Shown: positions 11,131-52,204, counted from the first letter of the stretch. The stretch is DNA of 64,000 bases from Savitreella phatthalungensis (GCA_051599415.1 AP039698.1:434001-498000), one strand, 5' to 3'. Numbers and translations: made by a program. Notes: generated by a model not told the origin, from the sequence alone.

Positions 11131-11301
11131 TGTGCTTCGCCCACGCCATCATGGCGATGAACTGCAGCGCGTCATTATCATATATCATCTCCATGGTTGT
11201 GCATTCGACGCTTTACCAGAAGCCATGCATACGAACCACAACGCTTCGGGAATAGTGTGGAGAGGGCAAAGATATGATCACTTCAGGTAGGGCAAAAATC
11301 A

Positions 11302-12831
11302 ATGGAAACCAGTCCGCGAATAGATCCTGGAGTAGCTTTGGAAGCGCCGGACAGGAGCGTGATGGGTGGTGCACTCTCCCGTGAAGATATGCTGTCGCGG
11401 CCAATCAGGATCCTGTGTGCTGGCGACAGCATCACCGAGGGGATGTCCGCCCATCAGCCGCAGCCTCATCCGTACTCGAACGAGCTTGCGGCCATGCTAG
11501 GCAAGACCCCCAGCGCCGTACACAACGTCGGTGTGTCAGGAGCTAAGATTCGCGAGATTCAAGGCTTTATGCGAGATGGCCTGTCAAAACACGGAAGGCA
11601 AGATTTGGTACTTGTCCTGGCAGGGACGAATGATCTAGGCCTGGAGGACGCGGATGTCGGGGCTGCTTTCGATGAGCTTAGAGACTTGTGGGCAGAGGCA
11701 CGGAAGACTGGTGCTCGGGTAGTGGCTATGACGATGCTAGAAATCAAATTCGCTGGCGAGTTCCGCAATCGAGGACTAGCGCTAAACAAGCTAATACGTG
11801 ATCACTTCGATAACATCAATCAGGACGAGCGTCTGGTCATGTTTGACGCATACGACGCTTTCCCTGAGGAAGGCGGCAACGAATATTGGTCGGATCCTGT
11901 ACATCCTTCAGCCTTGGGTTACAAACGCCTTGGCGAACAGATTGGGAGCTGGTTAGCGAGCACGTTCGATTGGGATGCTATCAGACGGAAGACGTTCTTC
12001 CGACCATGTATTGACATACACTCGGGCGTAGTCAAGCAAATTGTTGGTGGCACTCTATCAGATGCGCTTGCGCCCGCAGCGACCGAACTTAAGACGAATT
12101 TCGTGTCTGAGCATCCAGCTAGCTGGTTTGCTGAGATTTACCGTCAGTACAATCTGACGGGCGGACACGTCATCATGCTCGGTCCAGGTTGTGAGGAAGC
12201 TGCAAAGGGTGCGCTCGCTGCCTGGCCAGATAGACTCCAGGTAGGTGGGGGTATCAACAATCGCAACGCAGCGGGCTGGATCACCGCCGGGGCCTCGAAA
12301 GTCATCGTGACGTCGTGGCTTTTCCCAGACGGTGAGTTTGACATTGACAGACTCGACATGCTGAGACAGCTCGTTGGTAGGGACAGGATCGTGGTAGATC
12401 TGTCATGTCGGAGGCGGAAGTCGTCATCTAGCACGGCTCCAGCGTGGACAGTGGCTATGAACAAGTGGCAGACACTGACAACGCTCGACATCACAAATGA
12501 TGCCTTGGATAGGCTTGCAGATTACTGCAGCGAATTCTTAGTCCATGCCGCTGACGTCGAAGGGCTGCAGCAAGGCGTCGACGAAGCTCTGGTTACGTTC
12601 TTGGGACAGTGGGCAGCTCGCCGGAAAGAGCGGCTGAAAAGAGAAGGTACTTTGGGCGATGATTTCGGCGTCACCTATGCGGGAGGCGCACGCTATGTGG
12701 ACGACCTTCGTAATGTGCACACTCTGTCAGGCGGATTCGTTGACTTGACCATTGGCTCGGCCCTCGACATTTTCGGCGGGTCAGGTGCGACCTTGAAGCA
12801 GTGTATCGAGTGGAATCTAGCCATTCTGTAG
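11302..12831 (+). CDS. HIS6: Fusion of an N-terminal SGNH/GDSL hydrolase and a C-terminal ProFAR isomerase (His6)
   Basis: SGNH blocks GDSITEG, GVSG, GTND, DPVHP, followed in frame from ~11990 by His6 motifs FRPCIDIHSGVVKQIVGGTL, GGHVIMLGPG, LQVGGGI, EFLVHAADVEGL, DLTIGSALDIFGG. Confidence 0.9.
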   Translation: METSPRIDPGVALEAPDRSVMGGALSREDMLSRPIRILCAGDSITEGMSAHQPQPHPYSNELAAMLGKTPSAVHNVGVSGAKIREIQGFMRDGLSKHGRQDLVLVLAGTNDLGLEDADVGAAFDELRDLWAEARKTGARVVAMTMLEIKFAGEFRNRGLALNKLIRDHFDNINQDERLVMFDAYDAFPEEGGNEYWSDPVHPSALGYKRLGEQIGSWLASTFDWDAIRRKTFFRPCIDIHSGVVKQIVGGTLSDALAPAATELKTNFVSEHPASWFAEIYRQYNLTGGHVIMLGPGCEEAAKGALAAWPDRLQVGGGINNRNAAGWITAGASKVIVTSWLFPDGEFDIDRLDMLRQLVGRDRIVVDLSCRRRKSSSSTAPAWTVAMNKWQTLTTLDITNDALDRLADYCSEFLVHAADVEGLQQGVDEALVTFLGQWAARRKERLKREGTLGDDFGVTYAGGARYVDDLRNVHTLSGGFVDLTIGSALDIFGGSGATLKQCIEWNLAIL

Positions 12832-35579: not shown

Positions 35580-38500
35580 CTATGTAAAAATGTCGACCGC
35601 ATACCTGCTGGAGCTCGTTGCATCAAGGAACGCCTGGGCGCGTGTCTTTTCGCTTTCTCCATTTGCCTGTTCAACCATCTGCTTGAAGGCACGACGAAGA
35701 GAGTGCGATAGCTTTGATGCCGAGCCGCAGGTGTAGAAGCTTGCGCCGGCATCGAACAGTCGAAGTACATCGTCCTTCTCCGCGAGAACTCGGTCCTGTA
35801 CGTACTTGTGCTTCGATCCTTCTTGCCGAGAGAAGCTGTTCTTGACCTTGATTTTATCTGGGAATTCCGCTGCCCATGCCTCGAATTCGGACTTGTGAAG
35901 GAAGTCAGCGTCAGTGCGACAACCGTAGAACAGCACAGTCTCGCCAACGGCGCGACCATGGCGAAGTTGCAGGACGCGTTCCTGGAAAAATCCTCTGAAA
36001 GGTGCAATACCGGTGCCAGCGGCAAAGCAGACAATCGGTGTCTCGGGGTTGTCCGGTAGGTGGAAGTTGCTGCTGCCACGAACGGCGCACGCGAGCTCGT
36101 CGCCGGCCTTGAGATCTGCAAGGTAGTTCGAAGTCACACCTTGAAACTCGCTGGATCCAGCGAGGGATGGACCGCGGAGAATGTCGATCGTGATTGTGCA
36201 CATGTTCGGAGCCTCGAGTGGAGACGAGGAGATAGAATACTGTCGCTGATGAAGAGCCTGGAGTGAGTTGATATACTGGTCAAAAGTGAGATCGCAGGAA
36301 GTGCACTGTTCGAGCAAATCGATTGTGCTCAGTCGACGTTCCAAAACCTTTTCCTGATAGTTATCGCCATCCAGATCCTCGATCAAAGCCTTCTCCTTCG
36401 GCTGATCACACAGGGAAGCAAGAGTGGCGAGCAAGCGGCGCTGCACTGGCATGTTGAGCTCGACCGTCGACTCAAGCACGTCATACGCACGTACAGGCAC
36501 TGTCGAGCCGAGGTTTCTGCCGCGCAACGTCAACTTGGCATCTGGATCCAAATTGAAGCGCTTCAGAACGCGCAAGACCGTTGCTTTGGGGTTTTTTGGC
36601 AGAATCGAGATGTAGTCACCGGTGCGATAGACTTCATCCTCGGGCAACTCGATTGTGATGTGGCGCTTCGCTTCCGAAGTCTCAGAAGCAGCAGCAAGCT
36701 CCACGTTGTCAACAACCTTGCCTGACTGGAGTCCCTGGTTTGCACTGACGTTCAGGGTTTTGCTTGTCAACGGGATGTACTCAACGGAGCGTGCCTCGCT
36801 GTTGTCACCATCTGCGCCGAGTTCCTTGAGCAGTCCCTCTTTCCAGCTTTCAAACTCACCGATGAAGTCGCCGGCGACGTCACCCTCGCCACGAGGAACC
36901 AGGCGCTCGGCACCGAGCTCAGTCATTTTCGAGTCGATATTGCGCGGCACGTTCATGTACGTGTCAACCCAGTCATGGTGCCCGGCGCCGAAGACAGCGT
37001 ACTTCACATTCTTGAGCTGCGGGTCCGACTCCAGGTATGCGACGAACTGTCGAGCATTGTCACACGGCTGGCCTTCGTACGAAGCGGTGACAATCACAAC
37101 AGGCTCGTCTGTTGGCATCTTCAGGCAACTGTCGAGAGTCGCAACATCGGGCTGGAACCCGCGCGTTGAGAGCGTCTGGCCGAGGTCGTTGGCCAAGGCT
37201 TCGCACGAACCCGAATTGCTGCCAAAGAGAATCTTGACTGGTCTAGAGCCTGCGCCTGCAGTATCGGTTTCCGAGGGGACACTTGGCATGTCTCGGCCCT
37301 CAGCCTTCTCCCATGTCATCAGCGGGAAGACAGGCGGGGCACCCTTCACCCTGCGGCGCACGCGCATCTTCATGTCATCAGGCTTGATCGTAAGGGAGAA
37401 CTTCACCCGAAGTTCATATGTTGGATCAACGAGCTCGAGATCGAAGTTCTGGACGATGGTGGCGATGGCAAGCATCGCTTCCTGCAAAGCGAACGCTCGC
37501 CCAATGCAGGCACGGATTCCGTTGCCGAACGGCTTCCAGGAGTTGGGTAGCGCATTCTCGAAGCCGCCGTCAAGCATGCGCTCGGGACGGAATGCAAGCG
37601 GATCAGGACCCCAAGCAGCGGGGTCAGAATGAAGACCGTGCAAGTTGATGAAAACGGGTTGCCCGGCCTGGATGAGATGACCGGATGGCAGCTCAACGTC
37701 CTCATCGCTGCTCACGGCGAACATTGGAGCTGTCGGTTGCAGACGAAGGGCCTCTTTCAAGATTGCATCGATGTAGGGCATCTTGGTCAAGCTGTCTTGC
37801 GTGATCCAGCCAATTGCATCGACCTCTTCTTGGGCCTTCCGCATTGTCTTCGGATTTTTGACCATGTAATACAGGGCAAAAGACAACAAGCCGGATGTTG
37901 TCTCATGACCAGCGACAAGGAAAGTGAGTAGCTGAGCGCAAATGTTCTCGTGAGACAATTTCTCTCCAGTCTCAGGATCAGCGACATTCAACATTCTGTG
38001 GCAGAGGTCCTTTCGTCCCTTGTCACCTTCCTTGACTCGCTGTGCGATGATCTCGTTGGCAAACTCCTGCAATCGGTGCTGCGCATTAGTGAACTTTGCG
38101 CGCTGTGAGATGTTGAAGACTTTGTTAATGGGCATCATGGCGCGTCTTCCGCCGAGAGTCAAGAACTCCAGCATGTGTCCGATAAATGGGTGCATGTCCT
38201 CCTTGAAGAACGAATTGAAGCGGTAGTCGAACGCACAGAGGGAGATTGTGTCTAGTGTCAAGCGCGTGAGTTGGTCGGGAATGTCAATTGCCTCGTTCTG
38301 GTGCGTGTGCCAACGCGTGATCATGCTGCGTGCTAGATCGACCATATCGTCGTACATGTTGCGCACGGACATGGCCCCGAAAGCGGGCATGAGGATACGG
38401 TGTGCCATTCCCCAATTTGGATTGTCGTTGTCGACTGTAAAAAGGCCTTCCCCAGCGGCTGGCCGCAGCGCACGAAGGAAGTCGTGAGCCTCCTTGACAA

Positions 38501-38882
38501 CCTTGCCGGTCGAAAGCATCTTGTCGACGTTGCGTTGGCTTGAGAGAAAGGTCAATTCTCGCCCCAGAAGCGAGACCTTGAATGCTTCGCCATATAGACC
38601 GTGAAGCCAATTGATTGTGATGAGCGGATTGTGGAGCGCTGCTCTGAGCTTCGGGTTGAACAGGGCCAGTGAATTTGTTCCGGGGATCGGCTTGTATTTC
38701 TTTGGGTCTTTGCGAACCTTGGACCTCGAGCTTGAGGTGGTGTTGGAGCCCCGACGCTGTGAAGCAGACGAGATAGTCTTGGTGATCGCATTGTTCGAAA
38801 GGGCGCCAGTATCCGATGCTGGCGGAGTCTGAGTCGTAGCGTTCGCCATTGGATCGCTGTCTTGTTTCTTGAAGAGTCCCAT
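35580..38882 (-). CDS. Self-sufficient cytochrome P450-NADPH reductase fusion (CYP505/P450foxy, BM3-like fatty acid hydroxylase)
   Basis: P450 motifs AGHETT, EALR, PER, FGNGIRACIG; FMN motif FGSNSGSCE; FAD motif RQYSISSS; NADPH motif AGTGIAPF; C-terminal YAVDIFT. Confidence 0.95.
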   Translation of the reverse strand: MGLFKKQDSDPMANATTQTPPASDTGALSNNAITKTISSASQRRGSNTTSSSRSKVRKDPKKYKPIPGTNSLALFNPKLRAALHNPLITINWLHGLYGEAFKVSLLGRELTFLSSQRNVDKMLSTGKVVKEAHDFLRALRPAAGEGLFTVDNDNPNWGMAHRILMPAFGAMSVRNMYDDMVDLARSMITRWHTHQNEAIDIPDQLTRLTLDTISLCAFDYRFNSFFKEDMHPFIGHMLEFLTLGGRRAMMPINKVFNISQRAKFTNAQHRLQEFANEIIAQRVKEGDKGRKDLCHRMLNVADPETGEKLSHENICAQLLTFLVAGHETTSGLLSFALYYMVKNPKTMRKAQEEVDAIGWITQDSLTKMPYIDAILKEALRLQPTAPMFAVSSDEDVELPSGHLIQAGQPVFINLHGLHSDPAAWGPDPLAFRPERMLDGGFENALPNSWKPFGNGIRACIGRAFALQEAMLAIATIVQNFDLELVDPTYELRVKFSLTIKPDDMKMRVRRRVKGAPPVFPLMTWEKAEGRDMPSVPSETDTAGAGSRPVKILFGSNSGSCEALANDLGQTLSTRGFQPDVATLDSCLKMPTDEPVVIVTASYEGQPCDNARQFVAYLESDPQLKNVKYAVFGAGHHDWVDTYMNVPRNIDSKMTELGAERLVPRGEGDVAGDFIGEFESWKEGLLKELGADGDNSEARSVEYIPLTSKTLNVSANQGLQSGKVVDNVELAAASETSEAKRHITIELPEDEVYRTGDYISILPKNPKATVLRVLKRFNLDPDAKLTLRGRNLGSTVPVRAYDVLESTVELNMPVQRRLLATLASLCDQPKEKALIEDLDGDNYQEKVLERRLSTIDLLEQCTSCDLTFDQYINSLQALHQRQYSISSSPLEAPNMCTITIDILRGPSLAGSSEFQGVTSNYLADLKAGDELACAVRGSSNFHLPDNPETPIVCFAAGTGIAPFRGFFQERVLQLRHGRAVGETVLFYGCRTDADFLHKSEFEAWAAEFPDKIKVKNSFSRQEGSKHKYVQDRVLAEKDDVLRLFDAGASFYTCGSASKLSHSLRRAFKQMVEQANGESEKTRAQAFLDATSSSRYAVDIFT

Positions 38883-41552
38883 GTCAAGCGTGGGGGTGGG
38901 ATGTTCTTATACCTTTGGCGAGCAAAGTGCCAAGCTTCTGGATCTGTTCGCTAGTGGTTGATTTAGTGTGGGTGTCGATTGTTGTGGGTCGCTTCCGCCG
39001 GGATCCGCAAAAATCTTGGTGTGGGGTTGTCTTGAGTTTCGTGCTGATTTCTTGAAGACGGTCCAGCGGCGGCAGAACTTCCTAACACAGATCGATTTGA
39101 TCAATCAGTTTGCAGAGCTAAAGGTGGTTGACTGCTCACAGTGACAAAGTCGTTCAGTATATCGATGCAACACTGCTGAGTGTCGTGCACAAGCGGATTT
39201 CCGTCTCACTATATAGTAGTGCTCGCTTCTTCTCGTCTACTGACTGCACCGTCGCACAGGACATCAATGATCGGGCAAGCGGGGGTGCGACTTGTCAGAG
39301 ACGATAGATCTGACCCCAGACATGGCCAGGTGTTCGGAAAAGGGCAAGCCTGGGGAGGAAGGTCGACTTGAGGGAACACACATGTGTTGGTCGCAGAGTT
39401 GAGCTGGTTTGGTAGGAACAGATTTCGAACCATCGAATTTAATCATTTGATCGTCTGCAGATTAGGAACTACGAAGTTAAGCTTGGGATATATGGCTACA
39501 TACATGGGCAGAGACGTATGTCACATGTTATGTTGATTTTAGAGTAACCTATGACAGCCAATTCTGCTCCAGCTGTCTGCTGCTCATAGCTTCGGAACTC
39601 TATTAGGTTCGATTGACGCTCAATTAATTCTACCAGCTTCAGTGAGAATCTGGTAGAGGTTGGAAAATCTAGTGGAGGACCGCACTCGGATACCTTCCTA
39701 CGTTCTCTCAAGAAATATCTGTCGCAATACTTACCGCAGCGTGAATTTCGTGGGATCTCAAACTATCCCAGGTGATATGGAACAGCTACTAGAATTGTAA
39801 CTCCTCCCGGCCACTACGTCAGCATTATGTCCATAAGCGACTACCACACCGTCGTCGATCTGGTTGATAGTTCTACTTTGGCTTCATTCTGAGACGGGTG
39901 GAAAGAGTAGGTCAACTTTGTGGGCGAGTTGGGAACGAATCAGGGAAGTAACTACATTGACTCGATGGTCCCCAGAGCAGCACGAACTCCTGCAGTGCAC
40001 AGTCAATCGATGTCAGGGCTCGAGTGATAGTACGTCATCGAGCACTGCATCTTCTACTACCATCGAGCAGATGTCGACCACACTCATCAACTCCTCCAGA
40101 CGTTCAGCTCGTGACTGACTTGATTCGGGTTGCCGATTGAATTGCTTCTGGCTATGCTTCTAGTTCGCTCAGGATGTTCTCTGCAGTGAGAGCTCACTCA
40201 AAAGTAAATCATATGATCTGCCATAATCTGTCATTTTATCGATCAGGATTTACACCCAAAAGGGATGAGCTGCAGTGGACTCTAGCCAAAGGTCGTGGGC
40301 TGATCAATAAATTATGCTTCGAAGCAAAAGAAGATTCACTGCAATGATGACGATGAGAGCTATCTAGTGCCCTGAGACGCATGACACAGAGCGCTTTCGG
40401 GCGTTACAGCGGATCCTGGCCGCTGGTCCAGGTCTTAGGATTGGATGCAGTGCTGGCCCATGCAACTATTCGGCCCTGCTCAATCGCGGAGTGTAATAGA
40501 CTCTGAGCGCTTCACCCTAGCTTGGCAATCACATGTCAGCGGTTTGGCGATGCTAACCGCCGGTAAGCGACCTTCTTCGCAGATCTATGGGGAACATGAC
40601 ATCGATCGTGTAGTAATAGCACTAGGGGGTGGATCGGGAGCCGCCTGACAGTGCAGCCGCTTGATCCGCTGATCGAAACCAATTCTCGTGATCAGGCTGA
40701 CCATTATCGTATTTATGAAATTGACCCTGACTGATGCAAATTCAGCAGCATCGAATTGAAAGTGGATGTGTTATGTGATTCAAAGGTGCATACACCCCGT
40801 GTCTCTAGAAGCAGAGATCATAATGAAATTGGCTTACAATCGAGAATGGAAATTACATGTGACAAGCACTTTGGAGCCATATGCGTTCGATACAGCCAGA
40901 AATTGATTTGAATTTGTATGAACTTGAGCATGATCACCGCTATCACTTCGGAATCTCCAGCGCTTTCCTATGACGTCCGCAGTCGACCTCGATTCTTAGA
41001 CCCGATTCCGTGCACGTGCATATAATGGGAGAAACGAGTCTACGTGAACAACTTTTATGCACCGTGCGTACGAATTAGCATGCGGTTGTAGAGATGGATT
41101 CAAGCCGAAGCCTTAGCCTTGCCGAGTCATCTCAGCGCCGCGTAAAGCGCTTTTATACGCTGTCAACTGATCTCTTCAGGGCAGCACTACGATCTTTCTG
41201 GCTATTGAGATCGTATGTCATAGCTCCAATATGAAGACTGTCAGCATGAATCTTTGATCGCCGCGCTGGCAAGCGAATCAGCTCAAGAAGCGCAGGGACA
41301 ACGGTCAGCAAGGGCGACAAGCGATTCGAACGGCCCATAGTATAATGATTTGCACTTGCATTGCGCTGTCTTGCACGATCGCAGAACCCATCACAGTGCG
41401 ATCCATGGCGATCTCTTCTCCATCGATCGTGCATAAAATGATTTCGCGCGCCGAACCTGGACTGACATTAAATCATCCACTGGGAGCAGGAGACGGTGCG
41501 CGTGTGACGTGAGTACATCGACGCGGCTCCAAGACGACGCACTTCTGCATCG

Positions 41553-42767
41553 ATGCGATGCACGAGGCTGCTATCGTCACAGATCCCGACACTCTCGGAG
41601 CGGGCGCGGAGCATCTCCCAAGGTCTGGTGAAGCAGACTACACTCTGGCGTCCCGCGGCTCTTCGCGATCCTGAGGCTATTCAACAGGCCGTGGACCGTT
41701 CCCATCTGCGTGATTATGCGGGGAAAGGCACAATCATTGAGATGAATCCTGGGCCGGGGCTTCTCATGCAGCACATCATTGAGAAGATCAAGCCTCACAG
41801 ATACGTCGCTTTAGAAACGCGGGAGCAGTTTACGCCGGCCCTCAACCTAGTTCGCGAGGCAGCAAAGGCACTGGACGTTGATTGCCGCGTCTTGAACCTC
41901 AACGGCTACCTCTGGGATACGTACGATGAGCTCGATCGTCTTCGAGTCGTCCCCTACGATGAGGTTGTGTACCCTCAAGAGGCAGGAGTCAACACTAACA
42001 TATGCCTGATAGCATCAATTCGTGATGCAGAGCTAGAGCAACTCCTGGCACAGTGGCTCGTTACGATGGCCACAAAATCATGGATCTTCTCTCTGGGTCG
42101 CGTTCGGCTCTACGCATTCGTTTCCCCGGGCGTGCGGCAGCGCTGGATGGCGCCAGTTGGCTCGCCCGCAAGATCGCGGCTCACAGTCATTCGAGAGGGA
42201 GCTTGCGATATCCGCGAGATCTTGCACAACCCATGGCAACGGCTCGGCAGATCAGCAAAGGCTGTGTGGCAGGAGGACATCAGCGATAAACCTGCTGACC
42301 CGGCTGTGCCTCGTGCTGACCCGGACTGTTTTATCAACACGTCGGACCTTTCACTGATCGAGCTCACTCCGTTCGCGACGCCGGGATTCACAGTGCCGTT
42401 CGAGTCATTCGACTATGTCGCTCGAAATCTCTTCATGAACCGCACTACAGCACTATACAAGCAGGTGCGCAGTCTCGCAAGCGGTGCTTACACTATTCTA
42501 AGGGATTTACCTGACGATCTTTGCCTGAAAACGCCGAGCGAAATGACGTTCAGCGATATGAACAGGATCGCGAGTGCTTTCCACAATTGGCCCTTTCGTC
42601 CGCGCTATCTCCACGTTGAAGATACCTCTACGGGCGAGAATCTCGTGAACCTCAAGTCCGTCATCAGCCAGACGATGCAAGAGGGTGCCATCAGGCAGCG
42701 GCAAAGTCCCATCAAAATCGGTACACCGGCCACAGCTCCGCCGAGCGCTTTTGAAAAACACCAATGA
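41553..42767 (+). CDS. MTF1: Mitochondrial transcription factor B (rRNA methyltransferase-like fold)
   Basis: IIEMNPGPGL...KPHRYVALE, FSLGRVRLY, R.RLTVIRE, F..WPFRP; N-terminal presequence. Confidence 0.8.
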   Translation: MRCTRLLSSQIPTLSERARSISQGLVKQTTLWRPAALRDPEAIQQAVDRSHLRDYAGKGTIIEMNPGPGLLMQHIIEKIKPHRYVALETREQFTPALNLVREAAKALDVDCRVLNLNGYLWDTYDELDRLRVVPYDEVVYPQEAGVNTNICLIASIRDAELEQLLAQWLVTMATKSWIFSLGRVRLYAFVSPGVRQRWMAPVGSPARSRLTVIREGACDIREILHNPWQRLGRSAKAVWQEDISDKPADPAVPRADPDCFINTSDLSLIELTPFATPGFTVPFESFDYVARNLFMNRTTALYKQVRSLASGAYTILRDLPDDLCLKTPSEMTFSDMNRIASAFHNWPFRPRYLHVEDTSTGENLVNLKSVISQTMQEGAIRQRQSPIKIGTPATAPPSAFEKHQ

Positions 42768-42827
42768 TCGAAGCTCTCTTTCGGCGGTCCGAAGGAGCGC
42801 ACACTACTCTAGACTTCATCACGGTCC

Positions 42828-43330
42828 CGGCACTGCTCCGCTCGCAGGTCGGTCGCACATCTAGGCCCGCGCGCCATGTAGCCATGCGGCTACGAGTGTT
42901 CTCAGACTTTGTCCTTGCAGATGTCCCCGCTGTGGACACCGCAAGCTTCCACGACGAACTCGTCGTTCAAGTCAGCCGCGGCGCACGGCACCCTCTACTG
43001 GCCAAATGACCACGTCGACTAGGTCGAGTCAGTCGCGCACTTAATGATTAGGGCCAGAGTCTCGCCGCGTCTTGTCGTGTGGCAACGTGCGTGACTGACT
43101 CTGACCCTAACTGTGAAGTGCGCGACTGACTCGCCCTAGTCGACGTGGTCATTTGGCCAGCAGAGGGTGCCGTGCGCCGCGGCTGACTTGAACGACGAGT
43201 TCGTCGTGGAAGCTTGCGGTGTCCACAGCGGGGACATCTGCAAGCACGAAGGTCTGAAATACTCTCAGCCGGATGGCTACGTGGCGCGCCGGCCCAAATG
43301 CGCGACTAACCTGCGAGGGGAGCAGTGCCG
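42828..43330. repeat. Long inverted repeat 1 (234-bp arms, 35-nt loop)
   Basis: Arms 42828-43061 and 43097-43330 are colinear. The core 42914-43042/43116-43244 (129 bp) has ~2 mismatches; the outer ~85 bp are more diverged. Confidence 0.95.
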
Positions 43331-43900
43331 CGATTGTAGTGTCCAGCTTTGGCTCTTCCGGCAGCGTGCCTAGGCCAGGCAAAGAAGCCATTGCCAATGA
43401 TGATCCGAATGTGAACGCCGCGGATAACCAATGGAGATGGAAGGATGGGTAGGATTTGTCGGACGATTTGTATCTTATATACCTTGCTCATTTCTCTTGC
43501 CTGACATGACCTGGCAGCCAAAATCAAGGTCGAGTTACAGCTGCAATTGAACATACAGATTATTCCTTCAATACAAGTTACATATGTCGAGCGTTCCCAG
43601 ATTGACGTCAGCGCGATGACGGCGGTGGCGGCAGTTCCTGGCAAACGATTCGTACTTGTCACGATAGTCTCTAGGTCTTCTTTGAGCAGCAATGACAAAT
43701 CAGTCGATGATCTATCGGAAGCAGCTTAAGGCTTACGACAGCAGACGAGGCGTCACAAAGTAGACGTATTGATAGTATTCCGACTATAAAGGGTATCACG
43801 AAAGTTGTAACGAAGGTGAAAGTATGTTAGAATTGCAGAGCATCTCCGGAGTGCGAGTTGTCCGATGCTGTAACACTGAAGATATACATACGCTTAGACT
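43097..43900 (-). pseudogene. Unit 1 of an unrecognised tandem gene family (stops/frameshifts, 3'-truncated and folded back)
   Basis: Encodes ARHVAIRLRVFQTFVLADVPAVDTASFHDELVVQVSRGARHPLLA; the upstream block 43510-43880 aligns by eye with 46990-47360 and 49620-49990. Confidence 0.7.
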
Positions 43901-44353
43901 TGACAAATATGTGAGCTCAAATTTCTGGAGACGCCGCGCTACGTAACACGTGCGATTGATGATCGTTGCAGAGTAGTCATCGCTAAAATTTGCCGTCTTC
44001 GTAACCACTGTGAGTTGCATGAAGAAATGCTTTCAGAAGGTATGATCTCGCAGCGGCTTCAGTCCGCATGTTGGCATTTCAGCTTTGTGATGGAATTCGC
44101 TATAGCTGCATGGCAAGTCTGACTCTCTCCAAGGAGCAGCCATCCACGGCTCAAGCTGCTTCAGCCGTTTGTCTCCGCACGATTATCGTCATAGGTCTCA
44201 GTCATTTGCAAGCGCTTTATGCAAGCGCCGCTTCGACGACATTGCATAGTCTGAGGCTGACATCGTGTCCACAAATCTCGCAAAGATCAAGGCCATCTAT
44301 GGGGGATTTATATAGACGACTTCCGTCGCTGCAGTATCAGAACCACACGCCCC

Positions 44354-45409
44354 ATGTTCTTCAAGCTCATCAGCGATCCTGGCTGTAGATTGACGGTATC
44401 TACCGGACCCGACAAGAACTATGCAGCTATCGCTGAAGGGGCGCATTTCATGGTCATGTGTACTCCCGGGGAAGGAATGCGCCATGGCTACAAAGTCACG
44501 TTCGCTTTGGCCTATGACAGGTGTAACTCTTGGGAAAGGTGTACCTGTGTACCAGGAGACCCGCTCAACAAAGCTCGTCAAATAGAGACTGTCTCGGTTG
44601 GCTATCGTACATTCTCAGTGTCAGGCAAGTGGACCGATGCCGTCGGTGGCGGCCATCCTTCGAAGCCTATGGAAGAATTCTGGCTGCGCGACACAAAACC
44701 TCGAAAAGTGACCAAGCAGAAGTCTGGCCTCACAAACGTGGTCTTTATTGACCCGAAACTGCCGTGGCCGGACGTGACTACAAAAGTGGAGTCACCCTGT
44801 CTCTTCGACTCCTATGACAAGCACTACCCGCTCCACCCCGGAGAACAGCAGACCCGTGCAAAGGTCCATGTGAGCATCGTCGATGGCGATGCTGTGGTGA
44901 GCGTCGATGGTGATTCGGAAGATGTAGGTGTCATCTTCTGGACGCATCAGCCCGCGCCTCCGACACAGGGACGAACGCTGTTCACAGCGACAGTCACGTG
45001 TAACCCCGGGCCACCGTCATACGGGAAAGATCCATATGATCATGCATCTGCTTGTGACCAGCCGTTTTCCTACTCACGCGCGGATTATTTCTTTTATCGG
45101 GGTCCAGAGGCTCGCCTCGCGTCTATTGGTTGGTGGACCAAGCCTAAGCCTTGGGAAAGCATCGCTTTACGCTTTATTCCGGGAAAAATGAGGGACCTCA
45201 AGTGGTATGTTCGGGGGTTCGGCCGGCGTAGGGTCTGGCCAATTTTCGACCGCGCCAAGGCCCCCTCGGATTGCAAGACGTACCGAACGATAGCTTCTCA
45301 CTGGGCCACATACGATGACGCTCGGGATGCATGCTCAGAAGCAAGCACACTGCTTGAGCGACATCACTATGTGCAGAGTATGAGACGAGGGTTCCGAAAT
45401 GTCATTTGA
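44354..45409 (+). CDS. Orphan hypothetical protein (351 aa, Cys/Trp/Pro-rich), possibly with an upstream exon
   Basis: Long uninterrupted ORF; the frame is open back to 44261, next to a GCTGAC branch-site-like motif; no recognisable domain. Confidence 0.6.
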   Translation: MFFKLISDPGCRLTVSTGPDKNYAAIAEGAHFMVMCTPGEGMRHGYKVTFALAYDRCNSWERCTCVPGDPLNKARQIETVSVGYRTFSVSGKWTDAVGGGHPSKPMEEFWLRDTKPRKVTKQKSGLTNVVFIDPKLPWPDVTTKVESPCLFDSYDKHYPLHPGEQQTRAKVHVSIVDGDAVVSVDGDSEDVGVIFWTHQPAPPTQGRTLFTATVTCNPGPPSYGKDPYDHASACDQPFSYSRADYFFYRGPEARLASIGWWTKPKPWESIALRFIPGKMRDLKWYVRGFGRRRVWPIFDRAKAPSDCKTYRTIASHWATYDDARDACSEASTLLERHHYVQSMRRGFRNVI

Positions 45410-45985
45410 CACGGACTAGCCCGCGAGTCTACAGGTCAATGACAGTTGTGGCGAGTTTTGAGATTAGCTGCATTCCTTCACATATGGTTACGTACTGAGT
45501 GCGATGGAAAATAAGCCATTGGGAAAGTATCGATGAGCTCGTACCGGACGATGAAACACTATTTGTGTACAAAGGAGGTGGCTCAACAGCTGTATCGGAG
45601 GTGGATCATCAGCATTCCCCGGCTGTGACATGAGAGACCAATGTAACACTTTCCTAATCCGTCTCGCATCCATTAAGGCAAGTCATCGACCCACGCCTTC
45701 TTTCACAGACAACTTGAGCGACGCGAGCATGACAAGTCACGCATTTGTAGGAGCACACCTTCGAGAAGACCAGTCGTAGTTGAATACGCTATCATGCTAA
45801 GACCTCGAGAGCACTGTGTTGAACAGCAGAATCCTCAATTCCAAGTGAATGAGGCTGGTTTGGTCGTCGCCACCCAGTTGGGCGTGACTAGACCAGTCGT
45901 GCGAAGACTGGTATGGCAACTCAGCGTCTTTGTAGGATCGCGGCTTCCTTGAAGTTTTTCTAGTTCTTCTGCGAAGGATCCGCCT

Positions 45986-46363
45986 TCGGGCAGCTGGAAG
46001 CGCCAGCTTTTCAAGTTCACCATATTAAGAGCGGCTCAAAGCGCGTGCTGAGACTGCGGCACCCTCTGCTGGCCGACAGGCCAAACAAGCGCCTAATGGT
46101 GCTTGGCACCAGCCAGAACGCCCAAGTCGACTCGCTTCAGGCGAGTCAGTCGCGTACCTCGACTCTGTCGGCAAATCTTGATGGTGGTCACCCTGGGGTC
46201 GCTTCCGGTAGCGTCGCAGCCGGGCAGACCAGCACATCGAACCTGACAGGCGCGAACAACCGGGCTCCAACAGCATTTGTCGAATACTTCGATTATCAAC
46301 GCGTTGACGTTGGTCGGGCAGCTGGAAGCGCCAGCTTTTCAAGTTCTCCATATTAAGAGCGGC
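45986..46363. repeat. 50-bp direct repeat flanking the inverted insertion in unit 2
   Basis: TCGGGCAGCTGGAAGCGCCAGCTTTTCAAGTTC(A/T)CCATATTAAGAGCGGC at 45986-46035 and 46314-46363, 1 mismatch. Confidence 0.92.
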
Positions 46364-46655
46364 CGAGTTGAGCCGCAGTCTTAGCACGCGCTTTGACACA
46401 ACGTCATTGCGTTGATAATCGAAGTATTCGACAAAAGCTGTTGGAGCCCGGTTGTTCGCGCCTGTCAGGTTCGATGTGCTGGTCTGCCCGGCTGCGACGC
46501 TACCGGAAGCGACCTCAGGGTGACCACCATCAAGATTTGCCGACAGAGTCGAGGTACGCGACTGACTCGCCTGAAGCGAGTCGACTTGGGCGTTCTGGCT
46601 GGTGCCAAGCACCATTAGGCACTTGTTTGGCCTGTCGGCCAGCAGAGGGTGCCGC
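46056..46655. repeat. Long inverted repeat 2 (257-bp arms, 86-nt spacer)
   Basis: 46056-46312 is the reverse complement of 46399-46655 with ~5 mismatches; in addition 46036-46059 pairs with 46373-46396. Confidence 0.96.
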
Positions 46656-48600
46656 GCGCCGCGGCTTATCTCCACGACGTACTTGTCATGGAAGTTTGCA
46701 GTGTCCACAGCGGGGACATCTGCAAGGACAAAGTCTGAGAACCCTCGTAGCTGGATGGCTACATGGCGCGCGGACCCAGATCCGCGCAAATCGGCTCTCG
46801 CGCGCAGGAGGGCCGGGATGACCACGTCAATGCTCTGGTTGCTCGGCGGGTGTGCTTGATGGTTGCCATAAACAGGACGATGATCGCGTCTCCGGCATCC
46901 AGATATGGATGCTGAGGTGGAAAGGTGGCCACGTAATGTTGACGTATTCGTGTCTTATAAGTTGCTCAATTCTCTGGGCCAACATTCTCTGGCAGCCAAA
47001 TTAGTTGAATTATTACAAATGAACGTATAGGCTATTCTTCGAATACGAGGTACGTATGGCCTGCCTCAGGGCTGAGCAGCTAGAAGACATGTCAGAGCAA
47101 CGGAAAGAGCAGTGACAGCTGCTGTTCATCGATTGTCACAACGATCTCCGCGACTTCGTCGAGCGACAACGACACTCAACTCGGTGACGTTCCGGAAGCC
47201 CTTCGAGACTCGCGACAACTGACAATGCGCCTCAAAGCAGTCCTGATAGTGATGGTATGACTGGGGTGTCACACAAGCTCTGACAAAGTCGAAGGCATGT
47301 GAGGACTTGAGTGCCCTTGCGAGTGCTCGCTGCCCGACACTGCAACATCAAAGACGTGCCCGGAATATCAATGGCAAGCTTACACACGTGCCAGATATAA
47401 ATCCACACGTGCCAGCCTTCATAACTTAATTAAGTGACTCGATGCAGTGCTATATAACTTCTACATATACTCAAGCTTGCAAGTGTGTATAGATGTATTC
47501 GCAAGCCCATCCAGATAAAATTAGAGCCACGACAAAATATGCGCTTTCATAGTGGTTGGACTCAAAGACCGGTTGCTTGCAATGCGTTATCGCCCCGGCC
47601 CCAAATATGTCTATAAATAGTATCATTCAGGTATTTGCATATACTGTTGAAACATACAAAGAAGCGCGCCAGAGTCCAGAGTTCCAATGTTTCGATAATT
47701 GAGGTGGTCCGCTTGCGATTCTGGACTATCGTGTTTGGTAAGTGTGAGTCGCGTTGCATGCTTCGCTCAGTCTGCCGAATGTAGCAGCCCTTAACGACTG
47801 TTACAGCCAGACATTCTTGTACCGAGTCGCGACAACGAAGCCATCACCCATCATCCCCAGATTTTCGGCCGTGAAAAGAGCGATGACATGCCATTGATCT
47901 CGGCCCTTTGTAATCGCGTTTCGAGGACGCCAAGCTGGGTCGCAGGTATCGGTGAATTGTCTTCATGGGGGTCCTGCTCGGTGAGTGGCTGGATGTCCTA
48001 GCGGCTAGCTTCTTCGTCGGCAAGCCATCGAACGACCGGCTGGACACAAAGCAAAGAACCATCGATCTGTTTGACCCCCTTTTCAACAGACTTCTACGCT
48101 AGAAGGTATTGCAGGCCATGTGGCAGGCTAGGTGCTTGTGTGTTTTGGATCCGTGCATGTCTCAGATCTTCCAGTTTTCGCCGACATTTGCAGCGTATTT
48201 AGCTCCAGCGCTGCTCCGCATCTAGACTTAATGAGAATCGGCGGAATTTCGGCTGAATGCAGAAATCATGTAAAGAGAAAAGAAAGCGTCCCCACGTGCT
48301 CGTGGTTGAATAAGGGTTTAGCTAGTGCAACGGCGGTCACGCGGGTTCGCCGCGATATTCGACAACATGGAAAATAATGCCTTGTAGATAGAACGTATCT
48401 TTGCGAGAATTTTCTTGCCGGCGGCTGCTAGCGCATTTGACGAAGGTTGAGTACGCCCATGAATGATATTGAGTAGGAAATGGAGAGGACCTGTGCCTTT
48501 CCCGTTTTTCACCTAGAAGGGCCCAGTACAAGAAAACTCATTCATTAGCTACGAATGCTATTCTAAGCTACAAATGAGAACAACAAAATGAGTACTCCCT

Positions 48601-50030
48601 TGATTGCCATGTCAGCGAGAGCTCACTGACGCTTGCGGACCAGTTGGGCGTTGTCCAGCCGGGGGTAGTCAGGACTGCCGATATCTCTAACGGATTGTTA
48701 GAGGTCTTGAGTTAGGGCTTCGGTTTAGCCAAAATGTAGGTCAGAGCCTCATCATAGAGGTCGCGGTTGCTACTAGGCACCGCAAATGTCCACTTGAGAC
48801 TCTTGTTGATGGCTGCGGAGTCGAACCGTACGACTAGCGCGCCTCTCGTGACATTGGCGTTGCGCATATACGACTCCAAGTGCATGGTCGTCTGGGCGAC
48901 GCGGACGTTTGTCCTCTCTGCTGTGACGACTTTTCTTAGCTTGGAACTGACCCCAGCGGAGGCGGTACCCGGGTGACCCGCGTCAGCATGGGCGGAGTGC
49001 TCGCGCGAGCGCTCAATCGTTCAGTGCTCCTTCTCAGTAAGGTTGGACGACGAAGCTCAGCATGCAGCCACTGATTCTCTGAACGTCCTGCCTGAGCAGG
49101 TGTCTTTTGCCACGCTGGAATAGCAGAACCAGCTCGTCCTCGCTAGTCAGCGATTTGATTGCCGGGAGAATGATTTCGATGGACTCCGCCCACCGGCGGA
49201 GTCTTAGTTGGGCAAATCGCCCCGGTCGTTGCGCGAAGACGTCCGCGCGCGACACGAGGCGAATTGGCACGCTGACGTCGATCAGCGGTTCTCCAGTCGC
49301 TCTGCTTGTTGGGCTTTCGACGTCCAACCTTAGGGTTAGGGTTCGCCTCCGCTGGGGTCAGTTCCAAGCTAAGAAAAGTCGTCACAGCAGAGAGGACAAA
49401 CGTCCGCGTCGCCCAGACGACCATGCACTTGGAGTCGTATATGCGCAACGCCGCTCGCAAGCGGCGTGCCAATAAGCGTTGTAGCAGCGACAACAGAAAG
49501 CCAAAAGCCGTCACATCAAGCCAACGGAGAAGGAATAACGCGAAGCGCAACATATTGAGGTGAACAAGATGCGTGTTTGCTATTCATTGACAAATGCGCT
49601 TTTATATTCTATCAATGGTGGCCAACATAATTTGCCGGCTGGAAACGGGATTGAGTTATGACAATTGAGCTCCCATACACGACAATTAAGCCAATCGTTC
49701 TCCAGATCAAAGCAGTACAAAAGCATGCTAGAGCGATCCATATAGATGTCCACAGTGAATTCGGGCATGCGATAGTCTTCACAGCATCATTGAGCAGTGA
49801 TTACAGTGAGCTCGGTGACACTTCTGTGCCGGCTTGGGACTCGTGGCAGCAAGCAAACGCGCTGTAAAGCAGACGTATCGATATCAATATGACTAGACAA
49901 GGTGTCACGATAGTTCTGACTAAATCGAAGGCGTGTAAAGACTGCAAGTACTGTACGAGTGCTGGTCCGATGCTTGAGCATTGTAGACGTGCACAGTGGA
50001 TTTATGCCAAGCATATGCACGTGCCAGTAT
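48601..50030 (-). pseudogene. Unit 3 of the unrecognised family (stops/frameshifts, inverted insertion)
   Basis: IDVSVPIRLVSRAD...DELVLLFQRGKRHLL, SAHADAGHPGTASAGV, YMRNANVTRGALVVRFDSAAINKSLKWTFAVP and LTTPGWTTPNWSASVSELSLTW each align with unit 2; premature stops at 49034 and 48712. Confidence 0.72.
48856..49452. repeat. Long inverted repeat 3 (109-bp perfect arms, 379-nt spacer)
   Basis: 48856-48964 is the exact reverse complement of 49344-49452; an inner imperfect stem 49038-49067/49302-49332 and a weaker outer extension are also visible. Confidence 0.96.
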
Positions 50031-50206
50031 ACAGATATACGACGTCCAGATCAATTTATTTATGGCCTCGAATGAAGGATGAGATTTCCGCTTTCAGTAC
50101 GTGAGCTCAAGACTTCCACAACGCCGCGCACCGCTGAGCGTCTTGCAGGAAAGAAGATCTTTCTCGTCGCCCTTGAGACAAGTCAGGCTGCGCTCCTCAC
50201 TATACG

Positions 50207-52204
50207 ATGGTTAAAGAACTCGGAAAGCTCTTCGATTCAGCGGAGCAGGCGAACCGCTTTCTTGGAGAAGATCTTGCCTTTTGGTCGCGAACGCAGGCAA
50301 AACGTGCCAAGCAGCTTAGCCTTGCAACGCCTCCGAAATCAATTGCTTCTGTGATGACCTGGCCTGTGCGCGATCAGGCAGACAATGGGGAACGAATGCG
50401 AGAGCGTAATCGTCAACGTCAGCGTCAACGGAAACATCTTGCAAAGCGAAAGAATCGTGCATCACGTTCGCAGTCGACGTCAAACGCGGGCTCGTTCAGC
50501 TGTGAAGCTCGAATCGTGGCCACAGCTTTACGCCTTGCTCCGGCTCTCCATTCTGCCCCACTCATTGAGCTAAATGCCCGCGAGACTACTCACGCCCCTT
50601 GTGATGAGCTTGGACATTCCCAGTCGACACGAGGAGCACCTTCTGTCTGGGCGGACACGCGCCAAGAATTGTGCGAGGGGCTCCAGTATTTTCGCTCTTA
50701 CCATTCTGGTGCATATGGAAAGAACGGCTTCGTTTCGGGGTACCTGATCGATGGTCACAATGCCGACGGAGACAGAATTGGCGGTCGCATCATCATCAGC
50801 CATGCTGGCGGAAAATACTCAGCGGCCGAAGGCAAGCTTCACGCAGATCAGACTATCACAGACAGATCTGTGGCTGCGCTCATGAAGAATTTGACCCACG
50901 ATGTACCGCTTGTGCTCATTGCTGGAAACAGGTGGCCTTCGCGAGTTCAGCTCAACCATCGATACAATGTTCTTGGATGGTTCAGGGTCACGCACATATG
51001 GCCTGAGTGCCGATCGACAGGTACGGTTTTCAGAGTGCGATTTGAGACGCTCGATGCGGAGGTGGGCTGGTGGGCTCCCTCTGTTATGCGCGACCACATC
51101 CTGAATGGTCAGCTAGGGCAGTTCTTCTGCCATACTTGTGAGAGCGGGAGCCCTGTCCTCTACTCCCCTGCGACTTGCCTCAATCGCGACTGTTCGGCAT
51201 ACGCGACAGGTCAGTTGTCTCTCGACGCCGTGCATTGCCACTCTGGGAGAAAGCAAGCTGTTCCTCCGCATGGCCTCGAACCGAGGCATATCTGGCCCAT
51301 AAAAGGCTTTGGTACACGACGGGAGGACTGGCTGGCATTTCATTGCGACCGATGTGGTAAAATCAATTGCGTGATAGATTGGAACTCCAGACAATGCTCC
51401 AACTGCGATTCTCATCATCCAACATCTGGTCGCGTGGTCATTCCGCTGGACGTCGTCCTCGATCCGCACAGGCTTGTATACACAGGGATACCACTCATCA
51501 CTGATTTTTGTGCGCCCGAAATCAAACAACAGCGCCGAGAAATGCCTTCGCTTTGTATCGTTGAGTATGTTCTTCACGAATGCGGTCGTGTATACCATGT
51601 TCGAGCGTCTGAGAGTGCCAACACAGTAGCTGACGCGCTGTACTACGGCTATCAAGAGCAGAACGTGCCGATGCGCAGACGTATGCTGCGAAATTGCCGG
51701 TCGGACACTGGAATGCTCTGCCAGCAATTTCAGCACAATGCTGGCCATGCCTATAGGTTTTCCTGCCAGATTGACACGCAGCCCTTAGATGAATGCGCTC
51801 AAGTGGTACGCGACGCCCTAAGACTCATGCAATCACGCGTTGAATCGTGCGGTATCAGCGCAGAATTCAATCAGGTGCTCAGCATCGCTTACATGGAGCG
51901 GCAAAAGATGGACTTCCACGATGATGGAGAACGTGGAGTCGGGTCAGTGGTCGCCTCCATCTCACTGGGTGGATCTGCGGTGATGCGGTTCCGGGCCAAG
52001 AGGAAGCGAAGCAAACGAGGAGCCTGCGATGTACCAGAGGAGACGAGCGGTCGTGGTGACCTGCTGAAGCTCGACTTGATGCATGGAGATGTCTGCATCA
52101 TGGCGGGTCCGGCGTTACAGCGAGATTTCGAGCACTCCGTCATACCGTCCGGTTTATTTCGTCTAGCTGTGACAGCGCGTCTCATCGACCAGGAGAATGT
52201 CTAG
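50207..52204 (+). CDS. SRA/SAD-like + Zn-ribbon + AlkB-type 2OG-Fe(II) dioxygenase
   Basis: C-terminal AlkB motifs FNQVL..Y...KMDFHDDGE, ASISLG, LMHGD..IM.G..Q...EH, RLAVTAR; Cys pairs CHTC, CLNRDC, CDRC, CSNC; N-terminal WADTRQELCE..YFRSYHSGAY...HAGG...YNVLGWFRVTHIW. Confidence 0.85.
   Translation: MVKELGKLFDSAEQANRFLGEDLAFWSRTQAKRAKQLSLATPPKSIASVMTWPVRDQADNGERMRERNRQRQRQRKHLAKRKNRASRSQSTSNAGSFSCEARIVATALRLAPALHSAPLIELNARETTHAPCDELGHSQSTRGAPSVWADTRQELCEGLQYFRSYHSGAYGKNGFVSGYLIDGHNADGDRIGGRIIISHAGGKYSAAEGKLHADQTITDRSVAALMKNLTHDVPLVLIAGNRWPSRVQLNHRYNVLGWFRVTHIWPECRSTGTVFRVRFETLDAEVGWWAPSVMRDHILNGQLGQFFCHTCESGSPVLYSPATCLNRDCSAYATGQLSLDAVHCHSGRKQAVPPHGLEPRHIWPIKGFGTRREDWLAFHCDRCGKINCVIDWNSRQCSNCDSHHPTSGRVVIPLDVVLDPHRLVYTGIPLITDFCAPEIKQQRREMPSLCIVEYVLHECGRVYHVRASESANTVADALYYGYQEQNVPMRRRMLRNCRSDTGMLCQQFQHNAGHAYRFSCQIDTQPLDECAQVVRDALRLMQSRVESCGISAEFNQVLSIAYMERQKMDFHDDGERGVGSVVASISLGGSAVMRFRAKRKRSKRGACDVPEETSGRGDLLKLDLMHGDVCIMAGPALQRDFEHSVIPSGLFRLAVTARLIDQENV

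Follow-up and report, generated by a model that had tools for sequence, protein, structure and literature searches.

Three independent inverted duplications in a broken orphan gene family of Savitreella phatthalungensis may record recurrent fold-back repair

A 64,000-nucleotide (nt) stretch of Savitreella phatthalungensis DNA (GCA_051599415.1, AP039698.1:434001-498000; the whole stretch is called the window and positions are counted from its first letter) contains at 42,828 to 50,030 a tandem array of three minus-strand copies of one gene family (units 1, 2, and 3). All three copies are broken, and each carries its own long inverted repeat, which arose independently and was copied from the unit in which it sits. 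On balance, and with moderate confidence, we read these repeats as recurrent scars of fold-back or template-switch repair in tolerated pseudogenes, helped by a hot-spot specific to the family. An initial annotation of the array had proposed separate fold-back events maintained by selection for double-stranded RNA (dsRNA). The first part of that proposal holds, while selection for dsRNA is so far without support, and the locus is an interesting structure without demonstrated function.

The unit 1 inverted repeat (42825-43061 / 43097-43333) has 237-nt arms that are 88% complementary and enclose a 35-nt loop. In unit 2 (46056-46312 / 46399-46655) the arms are 257 nt long and 98% complementary with an 86-nt loop, and in unit 3 (48856-48964 / 49344-49452) they are 109 nt long and 100% complementary with a 379-nt spacer. 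Each unit thus has its own inverted duplication, as annotated, with the first arm slightly longer than the 234 nt given earlier. Four inverted pairs of at least 60 nt exist in the whole 64 kb, all at 42.8-49.5 kb; the fourth is the unit 1 inverted arm paired with unit 2. An exact-word census (at least 14 nt, within 1.5 kb) returned 17 inverted matches, 9 of which belong to the three unit repeats. The remaining 8 are 14-17 nt long, and their number lies within the chance range of 1-9 (20 shuffles). The observation of three inverted repeats is confirmed and chance is ruled out as its cause. Folding of minus-strand RNA predicts a long stem for every unit, at -615, -485, and -430 kcal/mol; relative to shuffled sequence the z-scores are -56, -35, and -25. 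Each repeat can be folded as one hairpin on the strand that would be transcribed, with predicted stems of 257, 237, and 109 nt.

The structure was checked in Logan contigs of six sequencing runs, all DNA or presumed to be DNA, two of which (X1 and X2) come from a sample that is possibly the source of the assembly and are therefore not independent of it. Together they cover the stretch with one differing letter (T>C at 46515, in X1). The contigs break at the arms, as those of a k-mer assembler must, and bridge the unique arm-loop junctions with 0 differing letters at depths resembling the flanks (X1: 42967-43191, 46317-46466, 48935-49373, and 49423 onward; X2: 46056-46343). These contigs rule out an assembler artefact. 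In a third run, X3, from another study and another organism, matches at 95-99% identity were recovered to parts of each unit (14 records, with 4, 7, 2, and 1 in four identity bands). One of its contigs, of depth 2, connects arm sequence with the flank to the left of unit 1. A hint in X3 that this relative lacks the inverted copies of units 2 and 3 proved unusable at a depth of 2-4 and with patchy cover: there was none at 45992-46375, and low-depth single contigs crossed the arm boundaries (46390-46687, 48859-49094). In or beside the units, single low-depth X3 contigs also have 11 nt inserted behind 45825 and 1 nt deleted at 48522. For X6, a run with the same organism label as the assembly but from another sample, no contig could be aligned to the stretch, which does not count as evidence of absence.

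Comparison of the units shows three diverged tandem copies of what was, to judge from how they differ, formerly a protein-coding family. Unit 1 (43882-43146) matches unit 2 (47354-46628) in DNA at 64% over 761 nt. The 5' block aligns at 64% over 308 nt between unit 2 (47442-47145) and unit 3 (50071-49776), and at 64% over 224 nt between unit 1 (43882-43662) and unit 3 (49987-49770). Within it lie the start codon (ATG at 47348-47346 in unit 2 and at 49981-49979 in unit 3; GTG in unit 1) and ~70 nt upstream of the start, where every unit has a CACGTG motif. The context of this motif in units 2 and 3 is GGCACGTG, and 3 of the 4 GGCACGTG sites in the window fall in these two units. Searches of the window with the unit peptides (TBLASTN) connect units 2 and 3 through three collinear segments (E 1.6e-7 to 7e-3) where the DNA no longer aligns, the pattern expected of sequence that evolved under coding constraint. 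The tandem minus-strand arrangement, common 5' block, and protein similarity described in the initial annotation were all recovered. Its 21 identities in a gapless 66-residue alignment of units 2 and 3 are correct letter for letter (0 of 100,000 shuffles reach 21), and the three motifs it quoted are found in both units, the first two spaced 42 residues apart in each.

Stops or frameshifts break all three copies, again as annotated. Unit 1 has a GTG start, a stop after ...LLAK, and a missing 3' half. Unit 2 has a stop 38 codons past the ATG, with homology continuing in another frame, and a 328-nt insertion. Unit 3 is interrupted by a stop at 49034-49036 and an in-frame one at 48712-48714, and its frame changes before 49020.

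The arms are 88-100% complementary to their own unit, while the units match each other at 64-78%. In unit 2 coordinates the copied segments are ~46560-46820 for unit 1, 46399-46655 for unit 2, and ~46403-46511 for unit 3. The insertion sites are a fold-back truncation in unit 1, a position downstream of the native arm in unit 2, and one upstream of it in unit 3. Since the arms match their own unit far above the between-unit identity, and both segments and sites differ, the three inverted repeats are independent, which bears out the claim of three separate fold-back events. With 28, 5, and 0 mismatches in units 1 to 3, the arm identities (88%, 98%, and 100%) suggest events spread over time. Mutation of the RIP (repeat-induced point mutation) type is excluded as the cause of these mismatches because transitions do not dominate over transversions (18/10 in unit 1, 3/2 in unit 2).

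Unit 1 (42825-43960, minus strand) is a truncated dead copy in which the 5' block (43882-43662) and a coding remnant (the region of the public gene model P0002, 43390-43149) are followed by the fold-back. The native arm (43097-43333, minus strand) is in sense orientation, and the 35-nt loop (43062-43096, minus strand) probably continues the native sequence beyond the arm as far as the point of fold-back. At 43062 the native run ends and the sequence folds back onto itself 35 nt behind, with ~2 nt of microhomology; the 3' half of the gene is gone, and the inverted copy (42825-43061, plus strand) abuts the 3' end of a RrnaAD-family gene. Of the 28 mismatches between the arms, 21 lie within the outer 87 nt, and for part of this cluster, on our reading of the alignment, two one-base indels that compensate each other are a better explanation than ten substitutions. 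Polarised with unit 2 as outgroup, 19 differences can be assigned to the native arm and 5 to the inverted one; 1 matches neither and 3 stand opposite a gap. The divergence of these arms is not clock-like, which suggests patchy conversion or complex local mutation.

Unit 2 (45835-47442, minus strand) comprises the 5' block (47442-47145), an open frame (46954-46313), the 328-nt insertion, and a C-terminal frame (46035-45835). Its native arm A (46399-46655) codes for RGARHPLLAD...YQRNDV. Read along the minus strand, A is followed by a short segment x (46372-46396), a segment B (46314-46363) that lies inside the hairpin loop, the inverted copy A' (46056-46312; 5 mismatches to A), a second inverted piece x' (46036-46060), and a second copy of B (45986-46035), after which the gene continues to its stop. 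The piece x' is the reverse complement of its template x at 24 of 25 nt and overlaps A' by 5 nt, and the second B is a 50-nt direct duplication at 98% identity. Both A' and x' are inverted but stand in the order A'-x', whereas a simple inversion of A-x would yield x'-A'. The A'/x' junction has a 5-nt microhomology (GCCGC) and the junction from x' to B has 0-1 nt. This order, together with the 5-nt overlap and the duplicated B, requires at least three template switches. The two B copies translate in one frame (AALNM-E/V-NLKSWRFQLP), so the inverted insertion is the sole visible lesion in the 3' two-thirds of the unit. Two adjacent mismatches between A and A' (46303-46304) turn a native quasi-palindrome, TCAACGCAATGA (46405-46416), into a perfect 12-nt palindrome, TCAACGCGTTGA (46295-46306). 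Making a quasi-palindrome perfect is a classic outcome of intrastrand template switching.

Unit 3 (48577-50071, minus strand) consists of the 5' block (50071-49776), the inverted insert, and remnants of the coding sequence that lie in two frames and contain internal stops. The native arm (48856-48964, minus strand) codes for SAGVSS...YMRNA, and its inverted copy (49344-49452, minus strand) is inserted upstream of an IDVSVP segment, with ~2 nt of microhomology at the entry. The insert is made of the inverted arm, 11 nt that complete an exact TTAGGGTTAGGG on the plus strand, and an inverted 17-mer. The telomere-type repeat occupies 49330-49343 (plus strand; the exact TTAGGGTTAGGG at 49330-49341, then TT), and the 17-mer, y' (49316-49332, plus strand), is at 16 of 17 nt the reverse complement of its template y (49038-49054, plus strand). 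With up to 1 mismatch, TTAGGGTTAGGG has 6 matches in the window against 0.03 expected, and one telomere-type tract exists in the window besides that at the unit 3 junction. Short interstitial telomeric sequences inserted during break repair are described in the primate and rodent literature. Unit 3 resembles them in that its rearrangement junction coincides precisely with a short, exact run of TTAGGG, but it has only ~2.3 repeats. We infer from this filler that a broken end may have been briefly extended by telomerase before joining.

The other telomere-type tract belongs to a second rearrangement of the window, a tandem duplication of ~251 nt at 2218-2700 between convergent adenosylhomocysteinase and FHA-kinase open reading frames (ORFs). 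Its 95-nt cores (2218-2312 / 2469-2563) are 96% identical. Copy 1 has about six degenerate CCCTAA telomere-type repeats (2314-2349), and copy 2 is unrelated there.

Copied segments and junctions differ between the units, as stated in the initial annotation, but in one respect two units agree: the native arms of units 2 and 3 end, on the side of the gene's 3' end, at 46399 and 48856, only 4 nt apart once the codons are aligned without gaps, with Y-x-R-N as anchor. Both units have a quasi-palindrome there, and the shared switch point suggests a hot-spot set by the sequence.

In the favoured scenario, three old and diverged tandem copies, now pseudogenes, would each have acquired an inverted duplication from a local template, in independent events of different ages. 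Using microhomology of a few bases, a DNA end that was broken or stalled would prime on the wrong strand close by, through fold-back or template switching, copy 109 to ~260 nt, and then be rejoined. Two factors could make such events recur. Decayed copies in a compact, gene-dense region may be among the few places that tolerate insertions, and at the quasi-palindrome in the Y-x-R-N codons strand switching seems to have begun or ended in two of the three units. The hairpins would then be by-products, probably neutral; if transcribed in a fungus proficient in RNA interference (RNAi) they would be diced, and a selected silencing role would be unneeded.

The junctions look like repair products in several ways. 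Templates come from the same locus, 35-379 nt from the copies, the switch points have microhomology (5 nt in unit 2, ~2 nt in units 1 and 3), and the inserts of units 2 and 3 are complex, with multiple switches. This anatomy and the shared boundary give a mutational account without need of selection. A study of yeast breaks describes fold-back priming at microhomology, with DNA polymerase delta extending one end while end joining captures the other, as well as inverted insertions that come in pairs from a single locus (PMC11724301). The units resemble those yeast events in their cis templates within a few hundred bases, the 2-5 nt of microhomology, the two-piece inverted inserts, and one end that was apparently captured by end joining. 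They differ from what the yeast assay describes in being fixed germline events, three in one 7-kb array and one with telomere-type repeats.

Several points weigh against the repair account. The arms are 109-257 nt long, far from the mostly ~5-34 bp described for the yeast assay (PMC11724301). Long inverted repeats occur in all three units and nowhere in the remaining 14.1 kb of non-ORF DNA of the window, a distribution with p ~0.01 under a uniform rate over non-ORF DNA (the units make up ~4.25 kb). The homologous 5' block with its CACGTG motif has been retained and the arms lie downstream of it in sense, as a hairpin gene needs. The agreement of the two arm ends has a ~1% chance for one pre-specified comparison in a ~1.1-kb gene, but it was spotted post hoc among about ten or more possible boundary pairs, and the shared switch point is therefore treated as suggestive only. 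Lastly, repair junctions tell only of origin, and later retention by selection is compatible with them. If the repeats are scars only, they form an unusually clear natural series of long fold-back or template-switch insertions, of three ages in one 7-kb array, one with telomere-type filler and two with a common switch point.

An unlikely alternative is that the array was selected as a source of hairpin RNA (hpRNA). The units would be transcribed from their retained promoters and the hairpins diced, and the resulting small interfering RNAs (siRNAs) would silence intact family members, either paralogues at other places in the genome or alleles of this locus encountered in crosses. A new hairpin would be recruited whenever a paralogue had diverged beyond the reach of an older one. 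Every unit having its own hairpin, with no other long inverted repeat in the window, agrees with this, as do the very stable predicted stems, the homologous 5' blocks, and the graded arm identities, which fit successive recruitment. Almost no 21-mers are common to the units: the arms of units 2 and 3 share none outside their own arms, nor was a match to them found elsewhere within the 64-kb window, and the arms of unit 1 share 6 and 22 with unit 2. One hairpin could thus not cover the other units and each would need its own.

Precedents for such loci are described in Drosophila simulans and Naumovozyma castellii. In Drosophila, gene-derived hairpins suppress drivers, and the D. simulans hpRNA loci are clustered, with arms having ~200 bp of homology to their targets (PMC10317233). 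As in the Nmy/Tmy and hp-tHMG loci described there, the inverted repeats of the array derive from a gene family, are clustered, young, and of mixed ages, and retain the promoter-bearing 5' part. However, the hpRNA clusters in that account grow mostly by copying an existing hairpin, whereas each hairpin here was a fresh event within its own paralogue, in a fungus. Palindromic loci of the budding yeast N. castellii, whose transcripts form hairpins that enter the RNAi pathway, account for 74.1% of its siRNA reads (PMC7528652). Like the units, they are natural fungal inverted repeats that can fold as hairpins, but they were defined by sequenced siRNAs.

Other results also speak against an hpRNA role. 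Unit 1, with the oldest hairpin, is decaying (28 mismatches), the arm boundary common to units 2 and 3 points to a mutational hot-spot, and compact genomes leave few other survivable sites for an insertion of 100-330 nt. No intact target was found in protein libraries that include the gene models of this genome. The initial annotation had placed intact family members elsewhere, but apart from two long proteins matched in many stretches, protein searches returned nothing except gene models of the window itself. Provisionally, then, no intact paralogue has come to light, an outcome that the initial annotation itself named as counting against its proposal.

A search with the 214-residue unit 2 peptide against 1.84 billion representatives (phmmer) gave 4 hits at E <=0.001. 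Two were singleton gene models of the window itself, P0001 (196 aa, 46025-46612, minus strand) and P0002 (80 aa, 43149-43390, minus strand). The other two, P0003 and P0004, exceed 2,000 residues and match in 15 and 11 stretches to a Ser/Thr-rich part of the query; they were provisionally taken for compositional matches. A word-indexed search of 5.8 billion proteins returned P0001 alone. No intact family member was therefore found in either library, although unannotated copies escape such searches and paralogues as remote as unit 3 is from unit 2 may be missed. Metagenome scans and a viral scan had no relatives of the units. The public models P0001 and P0002 are apparent annotation artefacts on pseudogenes; the P0001 translation passes without a break through the loop and then through the inverted arm in antisense.

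Domain and structure searches did not identify the family either. The unit peptides gave nothing in Pfam at E up to 10, and every PDB sequence match had E >=1, including SARM1 TIR chains at E 1.1. A JSRP match on the unit 3 5' block was dismissed as sub-threshold (22 bits, cut-off 25). The Atlas pointed weakly to pore-forming proteins of the Aerolysin / ETX-MTX2 type (feature scores of 0.80-0.85 against a lead level of 0.9), and neither Pfam nor PDB supported this candidate identity of the ancestral gene. A single-sequence AlphaFold model was unusable (predicted local distance difference test score 36), and a MAFFT alignment of the unit peptides was discarded since it misplaced the second unit 3 piece. 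On these searches the family appears to be a lineage-specific, otherwise unmatched orphan.

A more specific form of the silencing hypothesis is doubtful: an RNAi arms race in which a fast-evolving and possibly harmful family (killer- or driver-like) would have been silenced three times by hairpin genes made through fold-back. If true, a hairpin allele would disable the copy that carries it and also act in trans to silence alleles or paralogues that are still intact, and the array would represent the first counterpart in a fungus of the hpRNAs that suppress meiotic drive in Drosophila. Should the units be transcribed and diced, they would be hpRNA genes born directly from copies of their targets, in a fungal lineage without close sequenced relatives.

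The remaining explanations (an inherited repeat, a role in cis, or an artefact) together have only a small chance of being correct. It is very improbable that all units inherited one ancestral inverted repeat as the array duplicated, and that deletions and gene conversion between arms then remodelled it. Conversion can homogenise the arms of a palindrome, those of unit 1 are a mosaic (19 against 5 polarised changes, clustered in one part), and a depth-2 contig of the relative has a different mosaic, but the copied segments are non-homologous between units and both insertion sites and junction contents differ. Equally hard to credit is a cis role for the neighbouring genes, with the repeats as terminators or 3' untranslated region structures of the RrnaAD-family gene (ends 42767) and a 382-aa ORF (ends 45409). 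The unit 1 inverted arm does start 58 nt past the end of the former and unit 2 does converge on the latter. However, the hairpin of unit 3 lacks a convergent neighbour, 0.4-0.6 kb separate the arms from the stop of the 382-aa ORF, and there is no known precedent requiring stems of 100-250 nt. Some amplification and long-read libraries are known to produce inverted chimeras, and the runs at the locus come from a possible source sample of the assembly, but chimeric fold-back molecules are barely credible when k-mer contigs of two runs reproduce the junctions exactly, the arms of units 1 and 2 have diverged, and the run of another organism contains pieces of all three units.

A transposable or foldback element was also considered and rejected, as the arms copy the unit's own coding sequence and have no further copies in the window. 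The 50-nt duplication in unit 2 is too long for a usual target-site duplication.

The window around the array is gene-dense. Its G+C content is 45-58% in 1-kb steps, and ORFs of at least 180 codons make up ~70% of it. These frames are long, uninterrupted, and of housekeeping type (adenosylhomocysteinase, aconitase, E2 acyltransferase, eIF2A, Nop9). Rfam and tRNA scans of the window were empty, and the 20 large window ORFs scanned had no Dicer- or Argonaute-type domain. The RrnaAD-family ORF (41508-42767) converges on unit 1. Between units 1 and 2 lies the intact 382-codon ORF (44261-45409, plus strand), which has no Pfam family, no Atlas neighbour, and among 5.8 billion proteins only its own 351-residue model P0005; no copy of it, intact or degenerate, lies between the other units. 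The flanking gene at 50177-52204 encodes a 2OG-Fe(II) oxygenase domain. Its nearest named relatives are fungal (5 hits: Arthrobotrys, Alectoria, Tulasnella), and the top match, an Arthrobotrys protein, has only 35% identity, so that the DNA comes from a fungal lineage with poor sampling.

Two other genes of the window have unusual architectures. A single 517-codon frame at 11278-12831 (plus strand) joins a GDSL-lipase domain (residues 47-217) to a His_biosynth domain of the HisA/HisF type (residues 243-496), and is either an unusual fusion or two genes open in one frame. At 35580-38906 (minus strand), a single 1108-codon frame encodes a self-sufficient P450 with flavodoxin, FAD, and NAD reductase domains.

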